DNA of 64,000 nt, taken from the NCBI GenBank assembly GCA_951406725.2, contig OX597820.1, positions 78,306,001-78,370,000 of the forward strand, read 5' to 3'. Made by a program: the position numbers and the translations under genes. This document shows, one piece after another, positions 3,813-56,790 of this stretch; positions within the stretch are counted from its first letter, which is position 1; every line of letters starts with the position of its first letter. The notes below the pieces were generated by a model that was given only the letters and a program-made list of their open reading frames with translations, made no database searches and was not told where the DNA came from. The DNA is from Octopus vulgaris. Its lineage: Eukaryota.

Positions 3813-5390
<1,578 letters not shown>

Positions 5391-11241: not shown

Positions 11242-12193
11242 ACAATGGGCTATATACCTGTAGCAATTTTGTCATCCATAGTCTGATATGATATTTCGGA
11301 ATAATATTCCTTCTTCAGGTCGCTTCCAAGGTATATTGAAAACCAACGGGTATTCTGGATCCATCGCAATTCAGATTAAGTACCCAAGACGACCAAAGAA
11401 GAGAAGGGCTAGACATACAACTAGCCCCTCCGGCCCCTCTCTGAGAGGACACCTCACAAAGAAACGAACAAGGGACAACATTCAATGTACACTAACAAAC
11501 TGTCCCGTCCGCGACACATATTTGTGTCAACGGGTTAATGTTGTGTATAGAATACAATGTAACAAATGCAAGAAGTTCTATGTGGGTAGCACAACAAGAC
11601 CGTTATACGTCCGCATCAAAGAACATCTGAACACGAGAGCCTCCTCCTTCAGAAAATATCTAGACAGATTCCGAAATACGACAAAAACATAACAGTCACA
11701 ATTGAGGCCAATAGAAGAAATTTGGGTAATTTAAGAATTAAGGAAGCTATACTCATACACACTCTAGGACCCCAAATTAACAACAGGCTAGAGGTTGGTA
11801 ATCAGTATATTATTTAGATACGTCTGGATGTGTGTAGGTTCATTTTTGATAATATTCTGATCTGTAGCTTATAACAAAAAAAACAATAGAAGAGAAGAGA
11901 AAAAAGGAAACTGCACGTATAATACGTAACTTAGGAGCAGCGCTACGGATGTACCAGCACACACGAGATTGAGACATGCTCGACCTCACACACTTCTCAT
12001 GAGGAATTCCGGAAGGAGCATCGTGAGGCCACTGCTGAGACGCTTCCAAAAAAATAAGAAGAAAAAGGAAAAGCCGTTGGAAAACCGATTATAGCAGCGA
12101 TTCCATCTAAGAATATCTGAAGAAGGAATATTATTCTGAAATATCATATCAGACTAAGGATGACTAAATTACAACAGGTATAGAGTCCATTGT
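11242..12193 (+). mobile_element. Penelope-like element, 5'-truncated: inverted terminal fragment, GIY-YIG endonuclease remnant, 3' terminal repeat
   Basis: CPV..C..NVVYRIQCNKCKKFYVGSTTRPLYVRIKEH, then after a frameshift LRIKEAILIHTLGPQINNR (stop 11815-11817). 11242-11318 is the inverted copy of 12117-12193, which carries CTGAAGA..GAAA. Confidence 0.88.
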
Positions 12194-14767: not shown

Positions 14768-15968
14768 GGCTGCCTCCTCGTTATCGAGTATGGCCATTGC
14801 ACGAAGCTTAACTGTTACTAGTGCTGTGATCAAATGTGACTTTTTAGCCCAGCCAAAGATCTACAATGTCTTGTACAGAATTGGCAACTAAAGCCTTTAC
14901 CGGTAATAGCCGGCTGTAGTTGTAACTGGGCTTCATGTGCCTTTGCATGTCGTTTAAGTCCTGCTGCCGAATTACACTCTCTTCCACATGCCTGACAGAT
15001 ATGATTAGTATGGCGTGTAACTCGACCACCAGTGGCCAGGTTGTCACTCATCTGTCTCGCTTTATGACTACGAAGATGACTCTTGAGTTCAGCTTTACTG
15101 AGGCAGAGTCTGGCACAGACACTGCATGTCAGCGTCATAAGAAGACCCTTCCCATCTGGAAATGTAAGAGCGATGCCCTCCCTGACTTCCCTCCTTACTT
15201 ACTCATGTGCAACTCGAGATTTCTCAAAAGTGGCTGTCCCCCTCATGCACAATCCTTCTCCACCTGCTACGATCAATAGCTATGCCTTCCCATGTGTCAG
15301 GAGAGATGCAAGCATCTCTTAAGGAAACTTTCAGCAAGTCCTTACACCTCTTTTTTGGTTTATGTGGAGGTCGTTCTCCTTTAGCTAACTCTCCATAAAA
15401 GAGTTGTTTTGGCATCCTTGAATCCTTCATCCTGACCAGATGATCACTCCATCTGAGCATTTGCTTTAACACAAGAGCTTATATACTTGCACACCGAGAG
15501 CCTTCCATTATTTCAAGATCACTGATGCGGTCCTTCTTCTTAATGCCATAGATCCGTCTGAGACACATCTGATGGAAACGTTCCAGTTGTTTAAGGTGGT
15601 ATCGATATGTGACCCACGTCTCGCAGGCATAGAGAAGAGAAGGGAGCACACATGCCTTGCACGCCTTTATCTTTGTCTTTCTGCATATGTCTCGCCGACT
15701 CCAGAGGCGCTTTTCTAGCCTTCCGAAAGCAACACTTGCTTTCCTAATTCTATAAGGAATTTCATCATCCAAATTGCTATATCTATTAATAGTGCTTCCC
15801 AGGTAGACAAACTGATCAACTGCATCAGGCCGTTTACCATACACATAGATATTTGGTACACTATACTGCTTACCAGGGGCAGGTTGATGCATGACAACAG
15901 TTTTCTTGAGATTGACTGTCAATCCTAAGGCAGTGCAAGCATCAGAGAATGCATTCAAAATGTGTTGC
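14732..15968 (-). mobile_element. RTE-clade LINE, 5'-truncated, frameshifted ORF2 with C-terminal C2H2 fingers and (TAA)n tail
   Basis: GLTVNLKKTVVM..FVYLGS..LLYACETW..LERFHQMCLRRI; LRWSDHLVRMKDSRMPKQLFYGEL; three CxxC..HxxxH motifs. Tail at 14732-14766. Confidence 0.92.
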
Positions 15969-16002
15969 ATACATACATACATTTATTCATACATACATAC
16001 AT

Positions 16003-17390
16003 ATTTCAACTGAATAAATAACATCTGTACCTCAGAACTCTCTGCATTCAATAAAACATTGGACAACAATGTGTTTACAGTGCCAGGACTCATACCAACA
16101 TCTGGTCTGCTTGATTGGACGCTTGATGAGATCCGAGCTGTTGATGTGAAAACCCAGAAAATACTAACAAGCACGCATAACTTCCACATAAACAGTGACG
16201 TAGACCGCATCTACCTAAAACGAAAGCAAGGCGGTAGAGGCTTAACATCGATCCAAAATGCCTTTGAATGTCGTATCAGATCGCTTCGACAACATCTTTT
16301 AACCACCAAGTGTTGAAGTGCATCCCTTGACCACGTTAGCTGATAACATTATAAGACTTAGATGAAAGGATGAGCCTCTATGAGCAGAAGACTATGCATG
16401 TATATGCTAATAGAAAGCTCCGAGATGATAGTAATATTAATCATCAAAGCAGTCTATCGTGACCAATAACCGAATCACTACCTCCCACTTTGAAGGGTAT
16501 GCGTTTGCAATACAGGAACAGGAAATGTCAACAAAGTACCTCATGCACAAAAGGGATAGAGATGCGGCAAAAGTAGCAAAATATGGAAATCAATGAAGAC
16601 TTTGTTAAATTAACAGCGAAGATATCGCATACACCATAAGCAGTTGTCCGAAAATGTCATAACGGTATTATCTATCGATGAGACATGGTGTTGTAACTGG
16701 GACACTCTATAATGAAATCCGTCTGAAGGATAACCCCGAGGACAATGAAATAAGAACCCGCAGTATGGTAGAAGCTATGGCCACTCATAATACAAAAGAG
16801 TACTGTTGGAATGACCCAGAGGAAACTTCAATAAAATGTAAGCATAACAGATCTGATGTAATGATTTGGGATCGAGAAGAGAAACTTTGTATAGTTGCCG
16901 AAATTAGCTGCTCAACGGATGTTAACATAAAGCTGAATGTTAGTGAAAAAGAGAATACCTATGCTGAACTATTGAGAAATCTACAGTTGCAATATCCAGA
17001 TTACAAGTTCAGGTTTATACCTGTAATTATTGGGGGACTGGGATATGCAACAGACTGCATAAACACCAATCTTGAGAAATTAGGCTTCTCAAAACTAGAG
17101 AGGAGAAAGCTGATTCGAAGACTACAGTTCCAATCCATCACTAGAACTGTAAAAACTGTAAAACTTTCCAGACGTTTATCATTTAAATATATATGAGTAT
17201 GTCTAGATATGCAGCTATATGCATGAGAATATATACATAAAACAAACAAATCTGCACATGCAAATATACATACAAGCAAAAATACCCAACTGTTGATATT
17301 GAAATTACAATGAAGGGGCCTTGGATCTAGGTTAGAAACCGGTTCTTACTCTATTGGCAAGAAATATTGAAATGAACTGAATAATGACAT
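16003..17390 (+). mobile_element. R4/Dong-clade non-LTR retrotransposon 3' portion (RT thumb, CCHC relic, restriction-like endonuclease), degenerate
   Basis: DVKTQKILT..NFHINSDVDRIYLKRKQGGRGL; FAIQEQE; HNRSDVMIWDREEKLCIVAEISC..EK..Y (PD-(D/E)xK-like). (CATA)n on both sides. Confidence 0.85.
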
Positions 17391-23338: not shown

Positions 23339-24008
<670 letters not shown>

Positions 24009-25970: not shown

Positions 25971-26487
25971 ATATAATCATATCAAAGGGAAATGGAAATT
26001 AATAGAAATTTTCATTTCTAGTGGCCTAGCAAGTAAAAATTTAGTCCAGAGACTATGTATTAATCATAAAATACAGTGTACATTTAAACACATAAGTAAT
26101 CCACTCATGGGATTCAACCAGCTAGAAAGAACAGCTAGGTTCTATAACCACATAATTAGGGATAAAATTCGACAGGAGCGAAATAAAAAATAAAAACATT
26201 TTACCATCTAATTTCCTGGTCCAATTGGTTTCTGATTTTAGGTTAGCAACTAAATAACTTTTACTCGCGAGGTGAAATCATTTTCAACAGGTACACCTTA
26301 GATTAAATATATAAACACGAGGCGATCAACTGCGTTCCTCTTGTTTATACATCTTAATTTTTTCAAATTCTGCTGCGCAGACGCTGACCTTCGCCGGCAA
26401 TAAAAAATTAAAAGTTGGTATTTTTTTATTGCCGGCGAAGGACTGCGTCTGCGCAGTAGATTTTGAAAAAAATAAGATGTATAAACA
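25971..26487 (-). mobile_element. Third diverged relative, with inverted fragment (about 26422-26487)
   Basis: Homologous to 23441-23958. Minus 26215-26291: CCTG-ttgaaaa-TGATTT..AAATCA-GAAACCAATTGGAC-CAGG. Confidence 0.65.
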
Positions 26488-26752: not shown

Positions 26753-26775
26753 ATTATGTTATATATACATACATA

Positions 26776-26833
<58 letters not shown>

Positions 26834-27442
26834 AATCAAGGAACGGCCATAATAGGCCATTCACCCACTAGAAATAACAGCCAAAAGCTTTAACCGCAAA
26901 ATAACATCAATTCCGTAAACCAGGAGAAAATTAAAAAACATTTACCCTGTAATTTCTTAGACGATGCACCGTTTAATCTACCGTTTAATGGTAAACTAAC
27001 CTGATTAAATTAAATCAAGCCAATCTACCATAGGCCCTTAGATTCATTAGTAAGAAATAGCCAAGTCGGAACAGATATTTTTCACGAGGCACTCCCCTTG
27101 CTACCTCGGCAATATCTGACCTAAAATTTTCAAATCGTCGCACTCGCGCCAAATTTATCGGCAGCAAATAAATATAAGCCGCCGATTCCATTACGGAATT
27201 AACCAGAAAATTCATAATTAATCAATATAGGGTGGCAAAAAAAATTTTGTAGAATTCATTTGCCACCAGCGGCCTAGTGGGAAAAAATTAAATAGTCATA
27301 AACCATTTTTAAGTTCAACATCACAATCAAGGAACGGCCATAATAGGCCATTCACCCACTAGAAATAACAGCCAAAAGCTTTAACCGCAAAATAACATCA
27401 ATTCCGTAAACCAGGAGAAAATTAAAAAACATTTACCCTGTA

Positions 27443-27549
27443 ATTTCTTAGACGATGCACCGTTTCATCTACCGTTTAATGGTAAACTAACCTGATTAAA
27501 TTAAATCAAGCCAATCTACCATAGGCCCTTAGATTCATCAGTAAGAAAT
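27443..27549 (-). ncRNA. Type I hammerhead ribozyme, intact core (array copy 2)
   Basis: Reverse complement of the motif at 31091-31197; CTGATGA, GAAAC and GTC all intact. Confidence 0.85.
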
Positions 27550-28913
27550 AGCCAAGTCGGAACAGATATTTTTCACGAGGCATTCCCCTTGCTACCTCGG
27601 CAATATCTGACCTAAAATTTTCAAATCGTCGCACTCGCGCCAAATTTATCGGCAGCAAATAAATATAAGCCGCCGATTCCATTACGGAATTAACCAGAAA
27701 ATTCATAATTAATCAATATAGGGTGGCAAAAAAATTTTGTAGAATTCTTTTGCCACCAGCGGCCTAGTGGGAAAAATTAAATAGTCATAAACCATTTTTA
27801 AGTTCAACATCACAATCAAGGAACGGCCATAATAGGCCATTCACCCACTAGAAATAACAGCCAAAAGCTTTAACCGCAAAATAACATCAATTCCGTAAAC
27901 CAGGAGAAAATTAAAAAACATTTACCCTGTAATTTCTTAGACGATGCACCGTTTAATCTACCGTTTAATGGTAAACTAACCTGATTAAATTAAATCAAGC
28001 CAATCTACCATAGGCCCTTAGATTCATCAGTAAGAAATAGCCAAGTCGGAACAGATATTTTTCACGAGGCATTCCCCTTGCTACCTCGGCAATATCTGAC
28101 CTAAAATTTTCAAATCGTCGCACTCGCGCCAAATTTATCGGCAGCAAATAAATATAAGCCGCCGATTCCATTACGGAATTAACCAGAAAATTCATAATTA
28201 ATCAATATAGGGTGGCAAAAAAAATTTTATAGAATTCTTTTGCCACCAGCGGCCTAGTGGGAAAAAATTAAATAGTCATAAACCATTTTTAAGTTCAACA
28301 TCACAATCAAGGAACGGCCATAATAGGCCATTCACCCACTAGAAATAACAGCCAAAAGCTTTAACCGCAAAATAACATCAATTCCGTAAACCAGGAGAAA
28401 ATTAAAAAACATTTACCCTGTAATTTCTTAGACGATGCACCGTTTAATCTACCGTTTAATGGTAAACTAACCTGATTAAATTAAATCAAGCCAATCTACC
28501 ATAGGCCCTTAGATTCATCAGTAAGAAATAGCCAAGTCGGAACAGATATTTTTCACGAGGCATGCCCCTTGCTACCTCGGCAATATCTGACCTAAAATTT
28601 TCAAATCGTCGCACTCGCGCCAAATTTATCGGCAGCAAATAAATATAAGCCGCCGATTCCATTACGGAATTAACCAGAAAATTCATAATTAATCAATATA
28701 GGGTGGCAAAAAAAATTTTGTAGAATTCTTTTGCCACCAGCGGCCTAGTGGGAAAAAATTAAATAGTCATAAACCATTTTTAAGTTCAACATCACAATCA
28801 AGGAACGGCCATAATAGGCCATTCACCCACTAGAAATAACAGCCAAAAGCTTTAACCGCAAAATAACATCAATTCCGTAAACCAGGAGAAAATTAAAAAA
28901 CATTTACCCTGTA

Positions 28914-29020
28914 ATTTCTTAGACGATGCACCGTTTCATCTACCGTTTAATGGTAAACTAACCTGATTAAATTAAATCAAGCCAATCTACCATAGGCCCT
29001 TAGATTCATCAGTAAGAAAT
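28914..29020 (-). ncRNA. Type I hammerhead ribozyme, intact core (array copy 5)
   Basis: Same motif as copy 2; C at 28937 preserves G12. Confidence 0.85.
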
Positions 29021-30386
29021 AGCCAAGTCGGAACAGATATTTTTCACGAGGCATTCCCCTTGCTACCTCGGCAATATCTGACCTAAAATTTTCAAATCGT
29101 CGCACTCGCGCCAAATTTATCGGCAGCAAATAAATATAAGCCGCCGATTCCATTACGGAATTAACCAGAAAATTCATAATTAATCAATATAGGGTGGCAA
29201 AAAAATTTTATAGAATTCTTTTGCCACCAGCGGCCTAGTGGGAAAAAATTAAATAGTCATAAACCATTTTTAAGTTCAACATCACAATCAAGGAACGGCC
29301 ATAATAGGCCATTCACCCACTAGAAATAACAGCCAAAAGCTTTAACCGCAAAATAACATCAATTCCGTAAACCAGGAGAAAATTAAAAAACATTTACCCT
29401 GTAATTTCTTAGACGATGCACCGTTTAATCTACCGTTTAATGGTAAACTAACCTGATTAAATTAAATCAAGCCAATCTACCATAGGCCCTTAGATTCATC
29501 AGTAAGAAATAGCCAAGTCGGAACAGATATTTTTCACGAGGCATGCCCCTTGCTACCTCGGCAATATCTGACCTAAAATTTTCAAATCGTCGCACTCGCG
29601 CCAAATTTATCGGCAGCAAATAAATATAAGCCGCCGATTCCATTACGGAATTAACCAGAAAATTCATAATTAATCAATATAGGGTGGCAAAAAAAATTTT
29701 GTAGAATTCTTTTGCCACCAGCGGCCTAGTGGGAAAAAATTAAATAGTCATAAACCATTTTTAAGTTCAACATCACAATCAAGGAACGGCCATAATAGGC
29801 CATTCACCCACTAGAAATAACAGCCAAAAGCTTTAACCGCAAAATAACATCAATTCCGTAAACCAGGAGAAAATTAAAAAACATTTACCCTGTAATTTCT
29901 TAGACGATGCACCGTTTAATCTACCGTTTAATGGTAAACTAACCTGATTAAATTAAATCAAGCCAATCTACCATAGGCCCTTAGATTCATCAGTAAGAAA
30001 TAGCCAAGTCGGAACAGATATTTTTCACGAGGCATGCCCCTTGCTACCTCGGCAATATCTGACCTAAAATTTTCAAATCGTCGCACTCGCGCCAAATTTA
30101 TCGGCAGCAAATAAATATAAGCCGCCGATTCCATTACGGAATTAACCAGAAAATTCATAATTAATCAATATAGGGTGGCAAAAAAAAATTTTGTAGAATT
30201 CTTTTGCCACCAGCGGCCTAGTGGGAAAAAATTAAATAGTCATAAACCATTTTTAAGTTCAACATCACAATCAAGGAACGGCCATAATAGGCCATTCACC
30301 CACTAGAAATAACAGCCAAAAGCTTTAACCGCAAAATAACATCAATTCCGTAAACCAGGAGAAAATTAAAAAACATTTACCCTGTA

Positions 30387-30493
30387 ATTTCTTAGACGAT
30401 GCACCGTTTCATCTACCGTTTAATGGTAAACTAACCTGATTAAATTAAATCAAGCCAATCTACCATAGGCCCTTAGATTCATCAGTAAGAAAT
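30387..30493 (-). ncRNA. Type I hammerhead ribozyme, intact core (array copy 8)
   Basis: Same motif as copy 2; C at 30410 preserves G12. Confidence 0.85.
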
Positions 30494-30703
30494 AGCCAAG
30501 TCGGAACAGATATTTTTCACGAGGCATTCCCCTTGCTACCTCGGCAATATCTGACCTAAAATTTTCAAATCGTCGCACTCGCGCCAAATTTATCGGCAGC
30601 AAATGAATATAAGCCGCCGATTCCATTACGGAATTAACCAGAAAATTCATAATTAATCAATATAGGGTGGCAAAAAAAAATTTTGTAGAATTCTTTTGCC
30701 ACC

Positions 30704-31427
30704 AAATTACAGGGTAAATGTTTTTTAATTTTCTCCTGGTTTACGGAATTGATGTTATTTTGCGGTTAAAGCTTTTGGCTGTTATTTCTAGTGGGTGAAT
30801 GGCCTATTATGGCCGTTCCTTGATTGTGATGTTGAACTTAAAAATGGTTTATGACTATTTAATTTTTTCCCACTAGGCCGCTGGTGGCAAAAGAATTCTA
30901 CAAAATTTTTTTGGCACCCTATATTGATTAATTATGAATTTTCTGGTTAATTCCGTAATGGAATCGGCGGCTTATATTTATTTGCTGCCGATAAATTTGG
31001 CGCGAGTGCGACGATTTGAAAATTTTAGGTCAGATATTGCCGAGGTAGCAAGGGGAATGCCTCGTGAAAAATATCTGTTCCGACTTGGCTATTTCTTACT
31101 GATGAATCTAAGGGCCTATGGTAGATTGGCTTGATTTAATTTAATCAGGTTAGTTTACCATTAAACGGTAGATGAAACGGTGCATCGTCTAAGAAATTAC
31201 AGGGTAAATGTTTTTTAATTTTCTCCTGGTTTACGGAATTGATGTTATTTTGCGGTTAAAGCTTTTGGCTGTTATTTCTAGTGGGTGAATGGCCTATTAT
31301 GGCCGTTCCTTGATTGTGATGTTGAACTTAAAAATGGTTTATGACTATTTAATTTTTTCCCACTAGGCCGCTGGTGGCAAAAGAATTCTACAAAATTTTT
31401 TTTTGCCACCCTATATTGATTAATTAT
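30704..31427 (+). repeat. Inverted block of the same unit (about 1.47 copies), ending in (TA)n
   Basis: Near-exact reverse complement of the array unit. The 66-aa ORF flips strand here (30934-31134 +). Confidence 0.97.
31091..31197 (+). ncRNA. Type I hammerhead ribozyme, intact core, extended stem II
   Basis: Stem I ATTTCTTA/TAAGAAAT; CTGATGA 31099-31105; stem II ATCTA/TAGAT; GAAAC 31174-31178; self-complementary stem III ACGGTGCATCGT; GTC triplet with cleavage predicted after C31189. Confidence 0.88.
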
Positions 31428-31496
31428 ATATATATATATATATCCTGTTGTACCCGTCCACCAGAACTTTCTCTCACTCTTTCTTCCTGTTTCTGC

Positions 31497-35427: not shown

Positions 35428-36050
35428 ACTTACTTGTACTTGTACTTGTGGCGACATTCAACCTGGGCGGGTAAGTCGGCTTCTTCTACCACCCTCGAAG
35501 CATCTGAAATCATGGCAGCCCACGCACGACGGTCCTGCGCCAGTTCACTGGAGATAGCAAGCCAGTCACGGTTCCATCGGCACAGGCCGAGCACCTGCGG
35601 TCCCGTGAGCACGGAGAGGTCCTCCTTGATCGTCGTAACCCAGGTCTTCAGCTGCCCGCCCGCGCGTTTCCGCCAGTTGGGAAGTGGAGTTGGGAGAAGG
35701 ACATCACGGCTCATTGTATTCGCCATTGAGAATTCATGGAAGAAGTTTCGTGGGAATATGTGGATTTCACAAGCGGTCCCCAACAATCCCGTATGTAGAG
35801 ACATCCTGTTTGCCGCAGATTATCCGCAGACGCAGGGACAGAACGGCCGAGGAGCCGCCGGTTGCCGAAACAGACACTCCGAGGATTTTCACCAGAGCCC
35901 CGTCTGCCGGATTGTGGCCCTAATACCACTCGGTGTCAGACCAATTCGCCTTGGGTGGCCCTACCAGGAACCGAAGTTCCCGACGGCATAGCTCTGACAC
36001 TACCCGTTGCCAGCGTCCCCACCACGGTGAGGAGGGGATGGACTTTAGGG
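35428..36050 (-). mobile_element. Internally deleted (bipartite) RTE element: 5' UTR-like part fused to the ORF2 3' end with an (ACAAGT)n tail
   Basis: 3' part WRKRAGGQLKTWVTTIKEDL..ELAQDRRAWAAMI. The 5' part on the minus strand has AGAGCTATGCCG..CCTGGTAGGGCCACCCA, resembling RTE 5' UTR blocks. Confidence 0.75.
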
Positions 36051-47504: not shown

Positions 47505-48551
47505 TTCACCACTATTAAGTGTGGAATGGGGATTGGCGTCATTTCACTCTCTTAACCAAAAGAGCGCGGTTTAACCCAGTTGTAAATTTTAACGCCTACT
47601 GTAAGTGGGTTGTTAATTACCCTACAGAATTTCCTAACACCCTAGACCCTCCCGGATTTCCACTGCACTTATTACTCTTCAGGAACTTGGAATTCGTCTG
47701 GTCATCCAAAAGGCGATACCTCATGTTACTGAGGCAACAATACTTACATAATGTGGTAAGGGGGATACTGTCTTCATACCAAGGATACCTCTTATTCCAT
47801 CCGGTAAAGACATTCCTTTCATATTCAGAAGGTTGCAATTCTCTCTCCGGCTGTTTTACCATCTCGATTAACAAATCACAGGGTCAGACACTGACGGTCG
47901 AAGGGTTTAATTTAGAAGAACCGTACTTCTCCCATGGCCATCTATATGTTGGCTGCTCTGAGTGGGGAGCCGACATAAACTATTTGCTTTTGCAACTCGC
48001 GAGAAAACCCAAAATATAGCCTATAAGGAAATTATGTAGGCGCCCTATCCGCCATCAAGTAATCGCTGCATTTTTGTATAAGTGATTACATTTGCTGTAC
48101 GTCTCTGAGGTTGCGTTTGCTATACGTTATAAATGTTCAATGTCTCTGTTTTCCGTATGTATATGTTGTTATCCCGCTTTGCCATCGATGTTCCCTACAT
48201 CTTATTTACACATTTCTTTTCGACATTCCAGCGTTAAATTGACAAGGCTGCTTTTGTGGCCACCAACTTTTACATGCTTTTCGAGGTTACAATCTCAAAT
48301 AAAAAGCAAAGCAAATACGACACACCAAAGTGGTGTGAAGGACTTCTTAAGGGCCACTGCGTCTAATCGAAGTCGTCTTTGCGCACAGCTCTGCCGCCGG
48401 GACTTTTAATTGTAAACGAGTCAAGGCGCTCTTCAGGGCCACAAAGTTTAAATTGTTACTTCTGTAGCCATGTTTGACGGAAGTCTTTCGGTTCATTTGA
48501 AAGACAACGCCATTGAGAGTTACACCGGGCAACGCAGGGTATCTTATAAAT
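47505..48551 (+). mobile_element. Helitron derivative carrying the PIF1-like helicase C-terminus
   Basis: YPTEFPNTLDPPGFPLH..RNL and FTISINKSQGQTL..G..LEEPYFSHGHLYVGCS, then TQNIAYKEIM*. 3' hairpin-like CCGGGCAACGCAGGG near 48526. Terminal CTAG is not intact and the ends are approximate. Confidence 0.8.
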
Positions 48552-55659: not shown

Positions 55660-56790
55660 TAGATTCTTAATTTTTCATATATAATATATAATTATCGTTG
55701 AATCATTATTTTACAGCTTTGATAATGAGTGGTGATAAAAATTGCAGTTGGAGCCCTTTTTACGCTACCTATAGAAAAAAGACTGAATGCACGGACAGCG
55801 GTAAAACAAATTAATGCTGTGAAGACCCCGGAGCTGTCAACCTATGTGTACTACAAAACTCGTTCAGACGTCTCAAGGAAGGAGACATTTTAGGGAAACT
55901 TTTTATCGTAGAAGATGAGGTCTTGCTGGAAATGTTTGAACAAAAACCAAACACAAGCAATCCTGCATTGTCTGCAGAACTTGGTCCTTTACAAATCACT
56001 ATCAATCTCGACACTTCCATAAATTCGGCCATATAAGCAGATGTTATTGAGAATCTCCTCACCATCTTACCAATGACCAGGCTCAATGATGAGTGAATAT
56101 TTGAAAAAAACCGCTGTCGAATCCTCGAGATATCCGTTTCATGCGTCGAAGTGCAAGGGGGGAATGAAAAATGGATTTAGCTTCGCAATTCTAATAACAG
56201 AAATTAGTGGATTTGTTGCAGCCATGCTACAGGGCCTATTGTCAAAGAAGAGTGATTTGAACAGGTCATGTTGTGTGTTCGCTGGAACTTCGTGGGGCTA
56301 TTATACTTTGAGCTTGTCCTAGATAATCATTCTGGGAACTCTAACACTTATGCTCAACAACTGCAGCGAGTATATGAGGTTTCGAAAACACACCACTCGG
56401 CATTGGTCAATCGAAGAAGCTCACTCCTAAGGTATAATAAAGCCCCTAAACACACTGCCAATGAAACCAAGCGCAGACTTGAAGAACTCGGGGAGCTGGA
56501 AGTGTTCCCTCGCCCTGCCAACAGTTCAGACCTTGCACCATCAGATTATCACATTTTTGAAGCCATGGATCATTTCCAGCATGGACAGAGTTTCAACAAT
56601 GTGGATGAATTTAAGAACGGATGCAGGAAGGTTTTTTTTTTTACCTCTAAACTGGTCAAATAGTATAAGTGTGCGATTAAGCTTCTGCATAACGATGGCA
56701 ACAGACTATAGAATATGGTGGAATATATTTCAATTAATAAACGATTTTCGTATGTAATATGTTTGAACTATTAATGAAAGCTGGAAATAC
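55660..56790 (+). mobile_element. mariner transposon relic (transposase pseudogene)
   Basis: MLCVRWNFVGLLYFELV..NSNTYAQQLQRV..PKHTA..ELGELEVFPRPANSSDLAPSDYHIF, a decayed LHDNARPH / YSPDLAPSDYHLF region. Boundaries approximate. Confidence 0.85.

Follow-up and report, generated by a model that had tools for sequence, protein, structure and literature searches.

Animal non-LTR retrozymes and their tie to Penelope-like elements have already been published (PMC7229834; bioRxiv 10.64898/2026.07.22.740005). As characterized in these two sources, they are dispersed multimers of non-coding, low-GC tandem units, 51–972 bp long and with one type I hammerhead each, for which no LTR, PBS or PPT is noted; Penelope-like elements co-occur with them, and their return to the genome has hitherto been argued from this co-occurrence and from pseudo-LTR similarity. 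Among nine Xenopus retrozyme dimers reported there, eight did not cleave. Penelope insertions are themselves described as having an inverted arm and a tail at one end (bioRxiv 10.1101/2021.04.23.441226), and the account of an anole Penelope-like element reports that the RT starts at two internal sites and extends both strands, and that the hammerhead is dispensable for insertion in vitro (PMC11167929). Dimeric type I hammerheads, as described in the sources cited, have the core C3-U4-G5-A6-N7-G8-A9, G12-A13-A14-A15.1 and U16.1-H17 and a weak self-complementary helix III, which suits dimer cleavage (PMC4209133; PMC3088659).

The locus analysed here, at 26760-31443 of a 64,000-nt stretch of the Octopus vulgaris genome (the window), comprises 7.9 tandem 491-bp units and an inverted arm of 1.5 units, set in (TA)n. 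TRF reports the array at 26829-30704 with period 491, 7.9 copies and 99% matches, and its units are 98.8–100% identical to the reference unit. Its parts are as follows.

26760..26828, no strand: left (TA)n target microsatellite, from the sequence and the TRF TA array at 26760-26830
26829..30704, minus strand: main arm, 7.9 units of 491 bp in tandem, with the ribozyme read on the minus strand, inner 5' end at unit position 183
26829: outer 3' end of the main arm, fixed end A, lying at +131 in the unit when counted from the cleavage site
30704..30705, no strand: head-to-head junction, base 30704 being claimable by either arm
30705..31427, plus strand: inverted arm, 1.5 units, starting 5 nt past the ribozyme cleavage site
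31321..31427, plus strand: Penelope-type 'tail', which separates end A from end B and measures 105 nt in the reference unit
31427: outer 3' end of the inverted arm, fixed end B, unit position +236
31428..31443, no strand: right (TA)n target remnant

The unit shares the retrozyme traits listed above, its longest ATG ORF being 66 aa and the longest stop-free stretch in the array 68 aa. No RT plus GIY-YIG ORF was found in the array, tblastn of a 781-aa Penelope protein gave no match in the window, and no tRNA head was found on the unit. The unit differs from animal non-LTR retrozymes, as these are described in the sources cited, in its 68-nt stem II domain with an A-U closing pair, in its two fixed ends and head-to-head arms in (TA)n, and in having no similarity to the local pseudo-LTRs examined.

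Each unit carries the motif ATTTCTTA-CTGATGA-ATCTA-58 nt-TAGAT-GAAAC-GGTGCATC-GTC-TAAGAAAT or a core variant of it, in nine copies, eight on the minus strand and one on the plus strand.

26952..27058, minus strand: hammerhead with G12U and G5A, core predicted inactive
27443..27549, minus strand: hammerhead, intact core, predicted cleavage after C at 27451
27932..28038, minus strand: hammerhead with G12U
28423..28529, minus strand: hammerhead with G12U
28914..29020, minus strand: hammerhead, intact core, predicted cleavage after C at 28922
29404..29510, minus strand: hammerhead with G12U
29895..30001, minus strand: hammerhead with G12U
30387..30493, minus strand: hammerhead, intact core, predicted cleavage after C at 30395
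31091..31197, plus strand: hammerhead, intact, predicted cleavage after C31189

The copy at 31091-31197 reads, in order, an 8-bp stem I, CUGAUGA, the 68-nt stem II domain closed by A-U, GAAA, a 12-nt self-complementary stem III region and GUC. Core and weak helix III are those of the dimeric type I hammerheads as published; helix I (8 bp) is longer and helix II far longer, and where those have a conserved G10.1-C11.1 pair, this family has A-U, G-U or an A-C mismatch. Four of the nine cores are intact and five have G12U. Much of what an earlier note had read from the letters of this stretch is borne out: the 491-bp array with its inverted block, a hammerhead or a core-mutated version of one in every unit, its GUC triplet, its stem I of 8 bp and its self-complementary stem III, the near-identity of the copies as a sign of youth, and a non-autonomous unit. 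It had claimed too much novelty, since the retrozyme–Penelope link is in print, 491 nt falls within the published size range and the array of the window is an atypical, partly disabled copy of its family. We found no description of the 491-nt family in the literature; supplements of the cited papers may list it. The family is a young, dispersed and non-coding variant of the known animal non-LTR retrozymes, and the class of element is itself already known.

Across the genome, the exact core pattern had 301 matches, compared to none in a reversed control, and 284 of 295 sampled hammerheads had an intact core. Among the loci, only the window array departs from the 11 invariant core positions; N7 is unique among 441 sites in having four inherited alleles, and at H17 the base is C or A, never G; in this predicted core, the variation at N7 and H17 is that allowed for a type I hammerhead (CUGANGA / GAAA / UH). 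Moreover, predicted pairs were broken by 13 of 51 inherited variants versus 103 of 228 new ones (p = 0.012), and 97% of alignment cells in the stems are paired. In folding predictions, the 121-nt region scored z = -4.4 and the monomer z = -6.3 relative to shuffles; stems I and II were well populated locally, stem III was barely populated in the monomer (P about 0.01), and its self-duplex in a dimer reached -17.5 kcal/mol. Dimer and trimer folding gave no dominant ribozyme conformation. On the core conservation that the earlier note asked about, the positions are fixed in all loci but this one, and core invariance taken alone was not significant (P about 0.2); the Rfam check that it suggested gave no hammerhead match in the window at the gathering score and none in the inverted arm at E up to 10. 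Formal covariation over 14 haplotypes was likewise not significant (48 of 500 shuffles reached the score) and the two compensatory pairs both came from two related loci; power was low because the family is too young. A possible 5' trace of self-cleavage was seen in arm starts counted from mapped junctions, of which 14 of about 171 lie at +3 to +13 past the cleavage site, compared to about 4 expected (an alignment-based count, 19/144 at 1-15, is inflated by alignment edges). This pile-up is suggestive only: 7 further arms start at -9 to -1, and starts also cluster at 183-224, close to a hairpin, so that pausing at structure can account for part of the signal. Overall, these data support a predicted type I hammerhead in the unit.

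The family is dispersed over 1207 candidate places in the genome, with 429 exact terminal junctions for end A and 824 for end B, and 0 in controls. Two arms head to head were found in 72 of 94 loci, and 67 of these 72 combined an A end with a B end, with no A+A or B+B; dropping 10 loci that had been chosen for having both ends left 57 of 62. Outer ends lay inside TA repeats in 139 of 144 cases, 3' ends were fixed and 5' ends variable across loci, and up to 18 consecutive units abutted directly. The pairing of one arm ending at +131 with the other ending at +236 is the Penelope 'tail' footprint, at 105 nt instead of 30-40. Like the EN+ Penelope-like elements described (bioRxiv 10.1101/2021.04.23.441226; PMC11167929), these insertions have an inverted, 5'-truncated arm, a tail confined to one end, a pair of internal start sites that lie downstream of the hammerhead and an AT-rich or microsatellite target; unlike them, they have a unit without an ORF, and the longer tail. 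Hundreds of young 491-nt insertions themselves bear the Penelope footprint. In the genome each arm is strictly paired with one site, whereas the anole enzyme is reported to show no strand difference in start site in vitro (PMC11167929); this pairing informs Penelope integration on a point which that study did not settle. The fixed ends, the (TA)n target and the dispersed family were absent from the first, sequence-only reading of the stretch.

Young autonomous Neptune-like elements with RT and GIY-YIG in 781-aa frames also insert in TA repeats of the same genome; of the 15 copies listed, the two with two arms each carry a tail at one end only. Tails in the elements examined are about 30-45 nt, and none of these elements resembles the unit in sequence. 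A second hammerhead family, with an unrelated 601-nt sequence, has the same hammerhead layout and a 109-nt tail, so that both families fall outside the 30-40 bp Penelope range. The two have in common two end motifs, TTTGRCTGYTATTTCTA and CACCCTATATT, the latter lying with a hairpin (31373-31410) in the tail region 31321..31427. A search for the shared-motif pattern returned only the two non-coding families among the first 100 of 3245 matches, and a short-stem-II pattern search returned family members only. With these end motifs in two unrelated units, a candidate structure for recruiting the RT can be defined.

The insertion anatomy backs the earlier note's proposal of a Penelope-like RT acting in trans, and we regard the unit as very probably a retrozyme moved by Penelope-type machinery. 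In its fuller form, which is probable, this is a young non-coding retrozyme with two fixed ends in TA, copied in trans by a Penelope-like RT-endonuclease from unit-length, probably circular RNA released by the predicted hammerhead. The array would be transcribed, and two hammerheads, whose motif is present, are predicted to pair through their 12-nt palindrome, with cleavage following GUC or GUA, whereupon a host ligase would close the 491-nt monomer, as in other retrozymes. The enzyme would nick both (TA)n strands, and the DNA ends would prime at +131 and +236, where the ends are observed. Each copy may then pass through several units to a variable stop, in keeping with the observed architecture, and the two cDNAs would be joined head to head, often by fold-back. 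After insertion, internal exchange presumably alters the arrays, the pattern of which is seen, and in the window it may have spread G12U to 5 of the 8 main-arm units. More tentatively, a Penelope-type enzyme dimer might start at two dedicated sites, one for each cut strand, and roll round a single ribozyme-made 491-nt circle from both; these sites would lie in a portable RNA structure common to sequence-unrelated retrozymes, and the 105-nt tail would reflect an undescribed Penelope partner or enzyme loading specific to the parasite.

The same element and Penelope-type enzyme could instead use linear multimeric read-through RNA as template, the ribozyme trimming the 5' end only, length being regained by unequal exchange and circles, if made, being a side product. 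The main substrate of the anole element is indeed given as unprocessed RNA (PMC11167929), arm starts are enriched just past the cleavage site, and expansion after insertion is evident in L043, L056 and the window array. Moreover, in L029, L119 and L132 a private variant is common to both arms in the terminal register, a hint of linear multimers, since a monomer circle predicts none; L036 and L144, with haplotypes specific to an arm, likewise count against the circle reading. Just three such shared variants are known, set against 184 differences between arms in 20,522 columns of the shared terminal register; three further variants seen on both arms match either the junction register or none and can be put down to conversion between arms. 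Within most arms the units agree with one another, and variants private to a locus occur on both of its arms, a pattern that favours a monomer (circle) template: at 8 loci, besides the subfamily-level L144, such variants are fixed in every covered unit of each arm, and long arrays such as L130, L039, L031, L117 and L191 lack any duplicated variant. The G12U units of the window array occur in no fetched locus, the sole other G12U being an independent single unit. We therefore consider a linear template unlikely, and a monomer or circle, judged from these variant patterns, somewhat better than even as the usual template; the 491-nt family offers a direct test of circle versus linear template. 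Assembled contigs from three runs guessed to be RNA and one unclassified run cover the unit with subfamily variants; such contigs can show neither strand, nor ends, nor circles, and were given no weight as evidence of expression.

Two other readings were weighed. Under the first, the unit would be a terminal repeat (pseudo-LTR) belonging to a still undiscovered autonomous Penelope-like element, with the loci as truncated or internally deleted copies: Xenopus retrozymes are reported to resemble pseudo-LTRs (PMC7229834; bioRxiv 10.64898/2026.07.22.740005), and tail and inversion are described as traits of autonomous elements (bioRxiv 10.1101/2021.04.23.441226). This is rendered quite improbable by units that follow one another directly, up to 18 in a row, by the lack of any RT or GIY-YIG frame beside the unit in the loci with flanks examined, which had short unrelated ORFs only, and by the comparison with 35 GIY-YIG loci of several families (from 148 matches of 6136 candidates), in which only a 53-bp neighbouring insertion and short second-family motifs were similar and no terminal repeat resembling the unit was found. 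Non-autonomous Chlamys elements such as MRC1, as described, have a 3' end that resembles the autonomous partner, unlike the 491-nt unit, and belong to a clade described as without canonical hammerheads, again unlike this family (bioRxiv 10.1101/2021.04.23.441226). The second, a satellite that DNA-level recombination has spread and whose hammerhead is vestigial or due to chance, would fit the five mutated cores among the nine in the window, the mosaic exchange in this array and the lack of an Rfam match, and is hardly credible: the fixed-end architecture (hundreds of dispersed loci, fixed 3' and variable 5' ends, TA targets) already contradicts it, and the 284 intact cores of 295 and the concentration of variation on N7 and H17 argue further against it.

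Within the family, G12U is nearly private to the window array (6 genome-wide versus the 301 exact intact cores), and along the 8 units of the main arm the G12 position reads G-T-T-G-T-T-G-T. A trimer circle suggested by this G-T-T pattern was rejected, as other variants lack a period of 3, and so was a daughter of the window array with dead cores, given the independence of the single other G12U unit, which belongs to another subfamily. With intact and G12U cores mixed, the window array is a natural test of dimer cleavage, the dimer model predicting that an intact partner should still cut a G12U unit.

Two fixed outer 3' ends, at about +131 (end A) or +236 (end B) from the hammerhead cleavage site, characterize the 491-nt family. 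Among 94 loci analysed (the window array, 39 drawn from the best matches, 34 taken from a listing of intact cores, and two sets of 10 chosen for the B end and for both ends), 72 have two head-to-head arms, 19 a single arm, and 3 are irregular. The two-armed loci combine A with B in 67 of 72 cases (57/62 without the 10 loci preselected for both ends), the remaining five having one degraded end, and neither A+A nor B+B occurs. TA repeats hold 139 of the 144 outer ends, and 14 further loci have the same insertion pattern. Penelope-like elements are reported to carry an inverted truncated arm and a 30–40 bp tail on one end (Craig et al., 2021, bioRxiv 10.1101/2021.04.23.441226), the tail reflecting two internal sites at which the RT starts, both strands of the DNA being cut and then extended (Frangieh et al., 2024, PMC11167929). 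Given this inverted arm, one-end tail and pair of start sites, the footprint of the 491-nt family is Penelope-type, with a tail (the stretch between A and B) roughly three times as long. In 16/72 loci the two arms have inner ends ≤15 nt apart (chance 0.06), and a deletion is mirrored about the junction in two; both are compatible with fold-back joining of the arms.

The window insertion is typical of this pattern, with end A at 26829, end B at 31427 and TA repeats on both sides:

26829–30704: main arm, 7.9 tandem copies of the 491-bp unit
30705–31427: inverted arm, adjoining the main arm

The earlier note's claim that every unit carries a hammerhead or a core-mutated version of it was borne out: of the nine motifs found, four have an intact core and five the core change G12U, one of these also G5A. 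In the motif, stem I spans 8 bp, the stem II domain 68 nt and the self-complementary stem III region 12 nt, with GUC as the triplet. Folding is far better than for shuffled sequence (z −4.4 for the 121-nt region, −6.3 for the monomer). The Rfam hammerhead models, proposed in the same note as a check, did not recognize the array. Folding predicts that stem III hardly forms in a single motif (P 0.01) and that two copies pair as a −17.5 kcal/mol duplex, in line with published accounts of dimeric animal hammerheads. Neither a coding frame above 68 aa nor a tRNA head was found in the array. Elsewhere in the window, positions 23751–23817 weakly match unit positions 223–292 (71%, E 6e-4), perhaps an old relative, and 26305–26485 form a MITE-like hairpin whose arms are each about 75 bp long.

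The 2.8-Gb genome contains 1207 candidate places for the unit, and searches with exact patterns found the intact core 301 times, end A 429 times and end B 824 times, while the controls matched nowhere. A looser pattern spanning both ends gave 3245 matches, ~88 of the first 100 belonging to the family. Subfamilies are about 91–100% identical to the window unit, and independent insertions from different ones lie side by side at two loci (L203; L101), suggesting that the same TA runs are targeted repeatedly.

Hammerheads were intact in 284 of 295 sampled, and five of the 11 exceptions lie in the window array. At the 11 invariant core positions, the majority sequences of all loci agree, the window array excepted. 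N7 is the only site among 441 with four inherited alleles, and H17 is C in 60 loci and A in 28. Predicted pairs are disrupted by a smaller share of inherited than of new variants (13/51 versus 103/228, p 0.012, the alleles not being independent). Weighing against selection on the ribozyme, core invariance taken alone has a P of about 0.2, and covariation in the family's hammerhead was not significant. Arms start at +3 to +13 in 14 of about 171 cases against about 4 expected, including the window inverted arm at +5, but seven more start at −9 to −1 and many others near the 184–219 hairpin, making pausing at structure a live alternative explanation of these starts.

Under the pattern used, G12U occurs six times genome-wide, five of them in the window array and the sixth in an independent single unit of a different subfamily. 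Together with other mosaic variants in the array, this count indicates that G12U arose after insertion and spread through the main arm by exchange. No two intact cores are adjacent, which places the array outside those termed 'active' by Li et al. (2026, bioRxiv 10.64898/2026.07.22.740005). Under the dimer model, each unit's site would be cut by its partner's core, so that G12U units might still be cleaved.

The RNA copied by the putative Penelope-type enzyme may have been a monomer (or circle) or a linear multimer, and three observations favour the monomer. Private variants are fixed across all covered units of both arms at eight loci, plus L144 at the subfamily level, and several arrays of 5–8 units lack any duplicated variant. 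In the terminal register, compared over 20,522 columns with three degraded loci excluded, the arms differ at 184 positions and share only three private variants; overall, a monomeric template is modestly preferred. A linear multimer would account for the three loci that share a private variant between arms in that register and for the arm-specific haplotypes at L036 and L144, but conversion between arms could produce either. Separately, variant 470A is carried by three of the 11 L045 units and is fixed in all six covered units of L053, as would be expected had one variant unit founded a new array; conversion or recurrence may instead be the source.

The 491-nt family is not an autonomous element. 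It works like animal non-LTR retrozymes and shares their testable features, differing in its long stem II, long tail and documented two-site insertion footprint; no description of it was found in the literature, repeat databases and paper supplements aside. Other elements in the genome are:

L079:944–6190 (also L076–L088, L093): autonomous Penelope-like family with a 781-aa frame, ORF1 separate, TA-targeted
L092:6255–6545 and L160–L189 (e.g. L171, L164, L180): 601-nt family

The former is young and combines ORF1 with a 781-aa RT and GIY-YIG frame; its linker CxxxxCxxC motif is of the Neptune or Nematis type. Its insertions lie in TA repeats, and of the 15 copies listed the two that are two-armed bear a tail of about 40 nt on one end. 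UUGAUAA in its terminal repeat may be a variant hammerhead core. Among additional Penelope-type families, a second autonomous-type one (L089:2600–5783) has a CCGAAGA hammerhead core and an about 30-nt tail, and L027, a locus of the 491-nt family, occupies the terminal TA run of such a copy. None of the 35 Penelope-type loci examined resembles the 491-nt unit. In the window, 11282–11692 (+) resembles by eye a GIY-YIG endonuclease end and is a possible Penelope relic, with no tblastn match to the 781-aa protein.

The 601-nt family, also non-coding and found beside one Penelope-type locus, has 2058 candidate places. Its arms are arranged head-to-head in (TA)n and end at +191 and +300, and its hammerhead combines a long stem II with a palindromic stem III. 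Both families have two short end motifs in common and probably use the same putative enzyme. Another short TA-flanked inverted insertion at L092:7360–7590 resembles the 601-nt family and is possibly a third. Frames at window 3888–4703, 15479–15982, 16663–17196, 35430–35819, 47519–48019 and 56256–56663 resemble, by eye, LINE relics and those of a Helitron-like element and of a mariner-like transposase.
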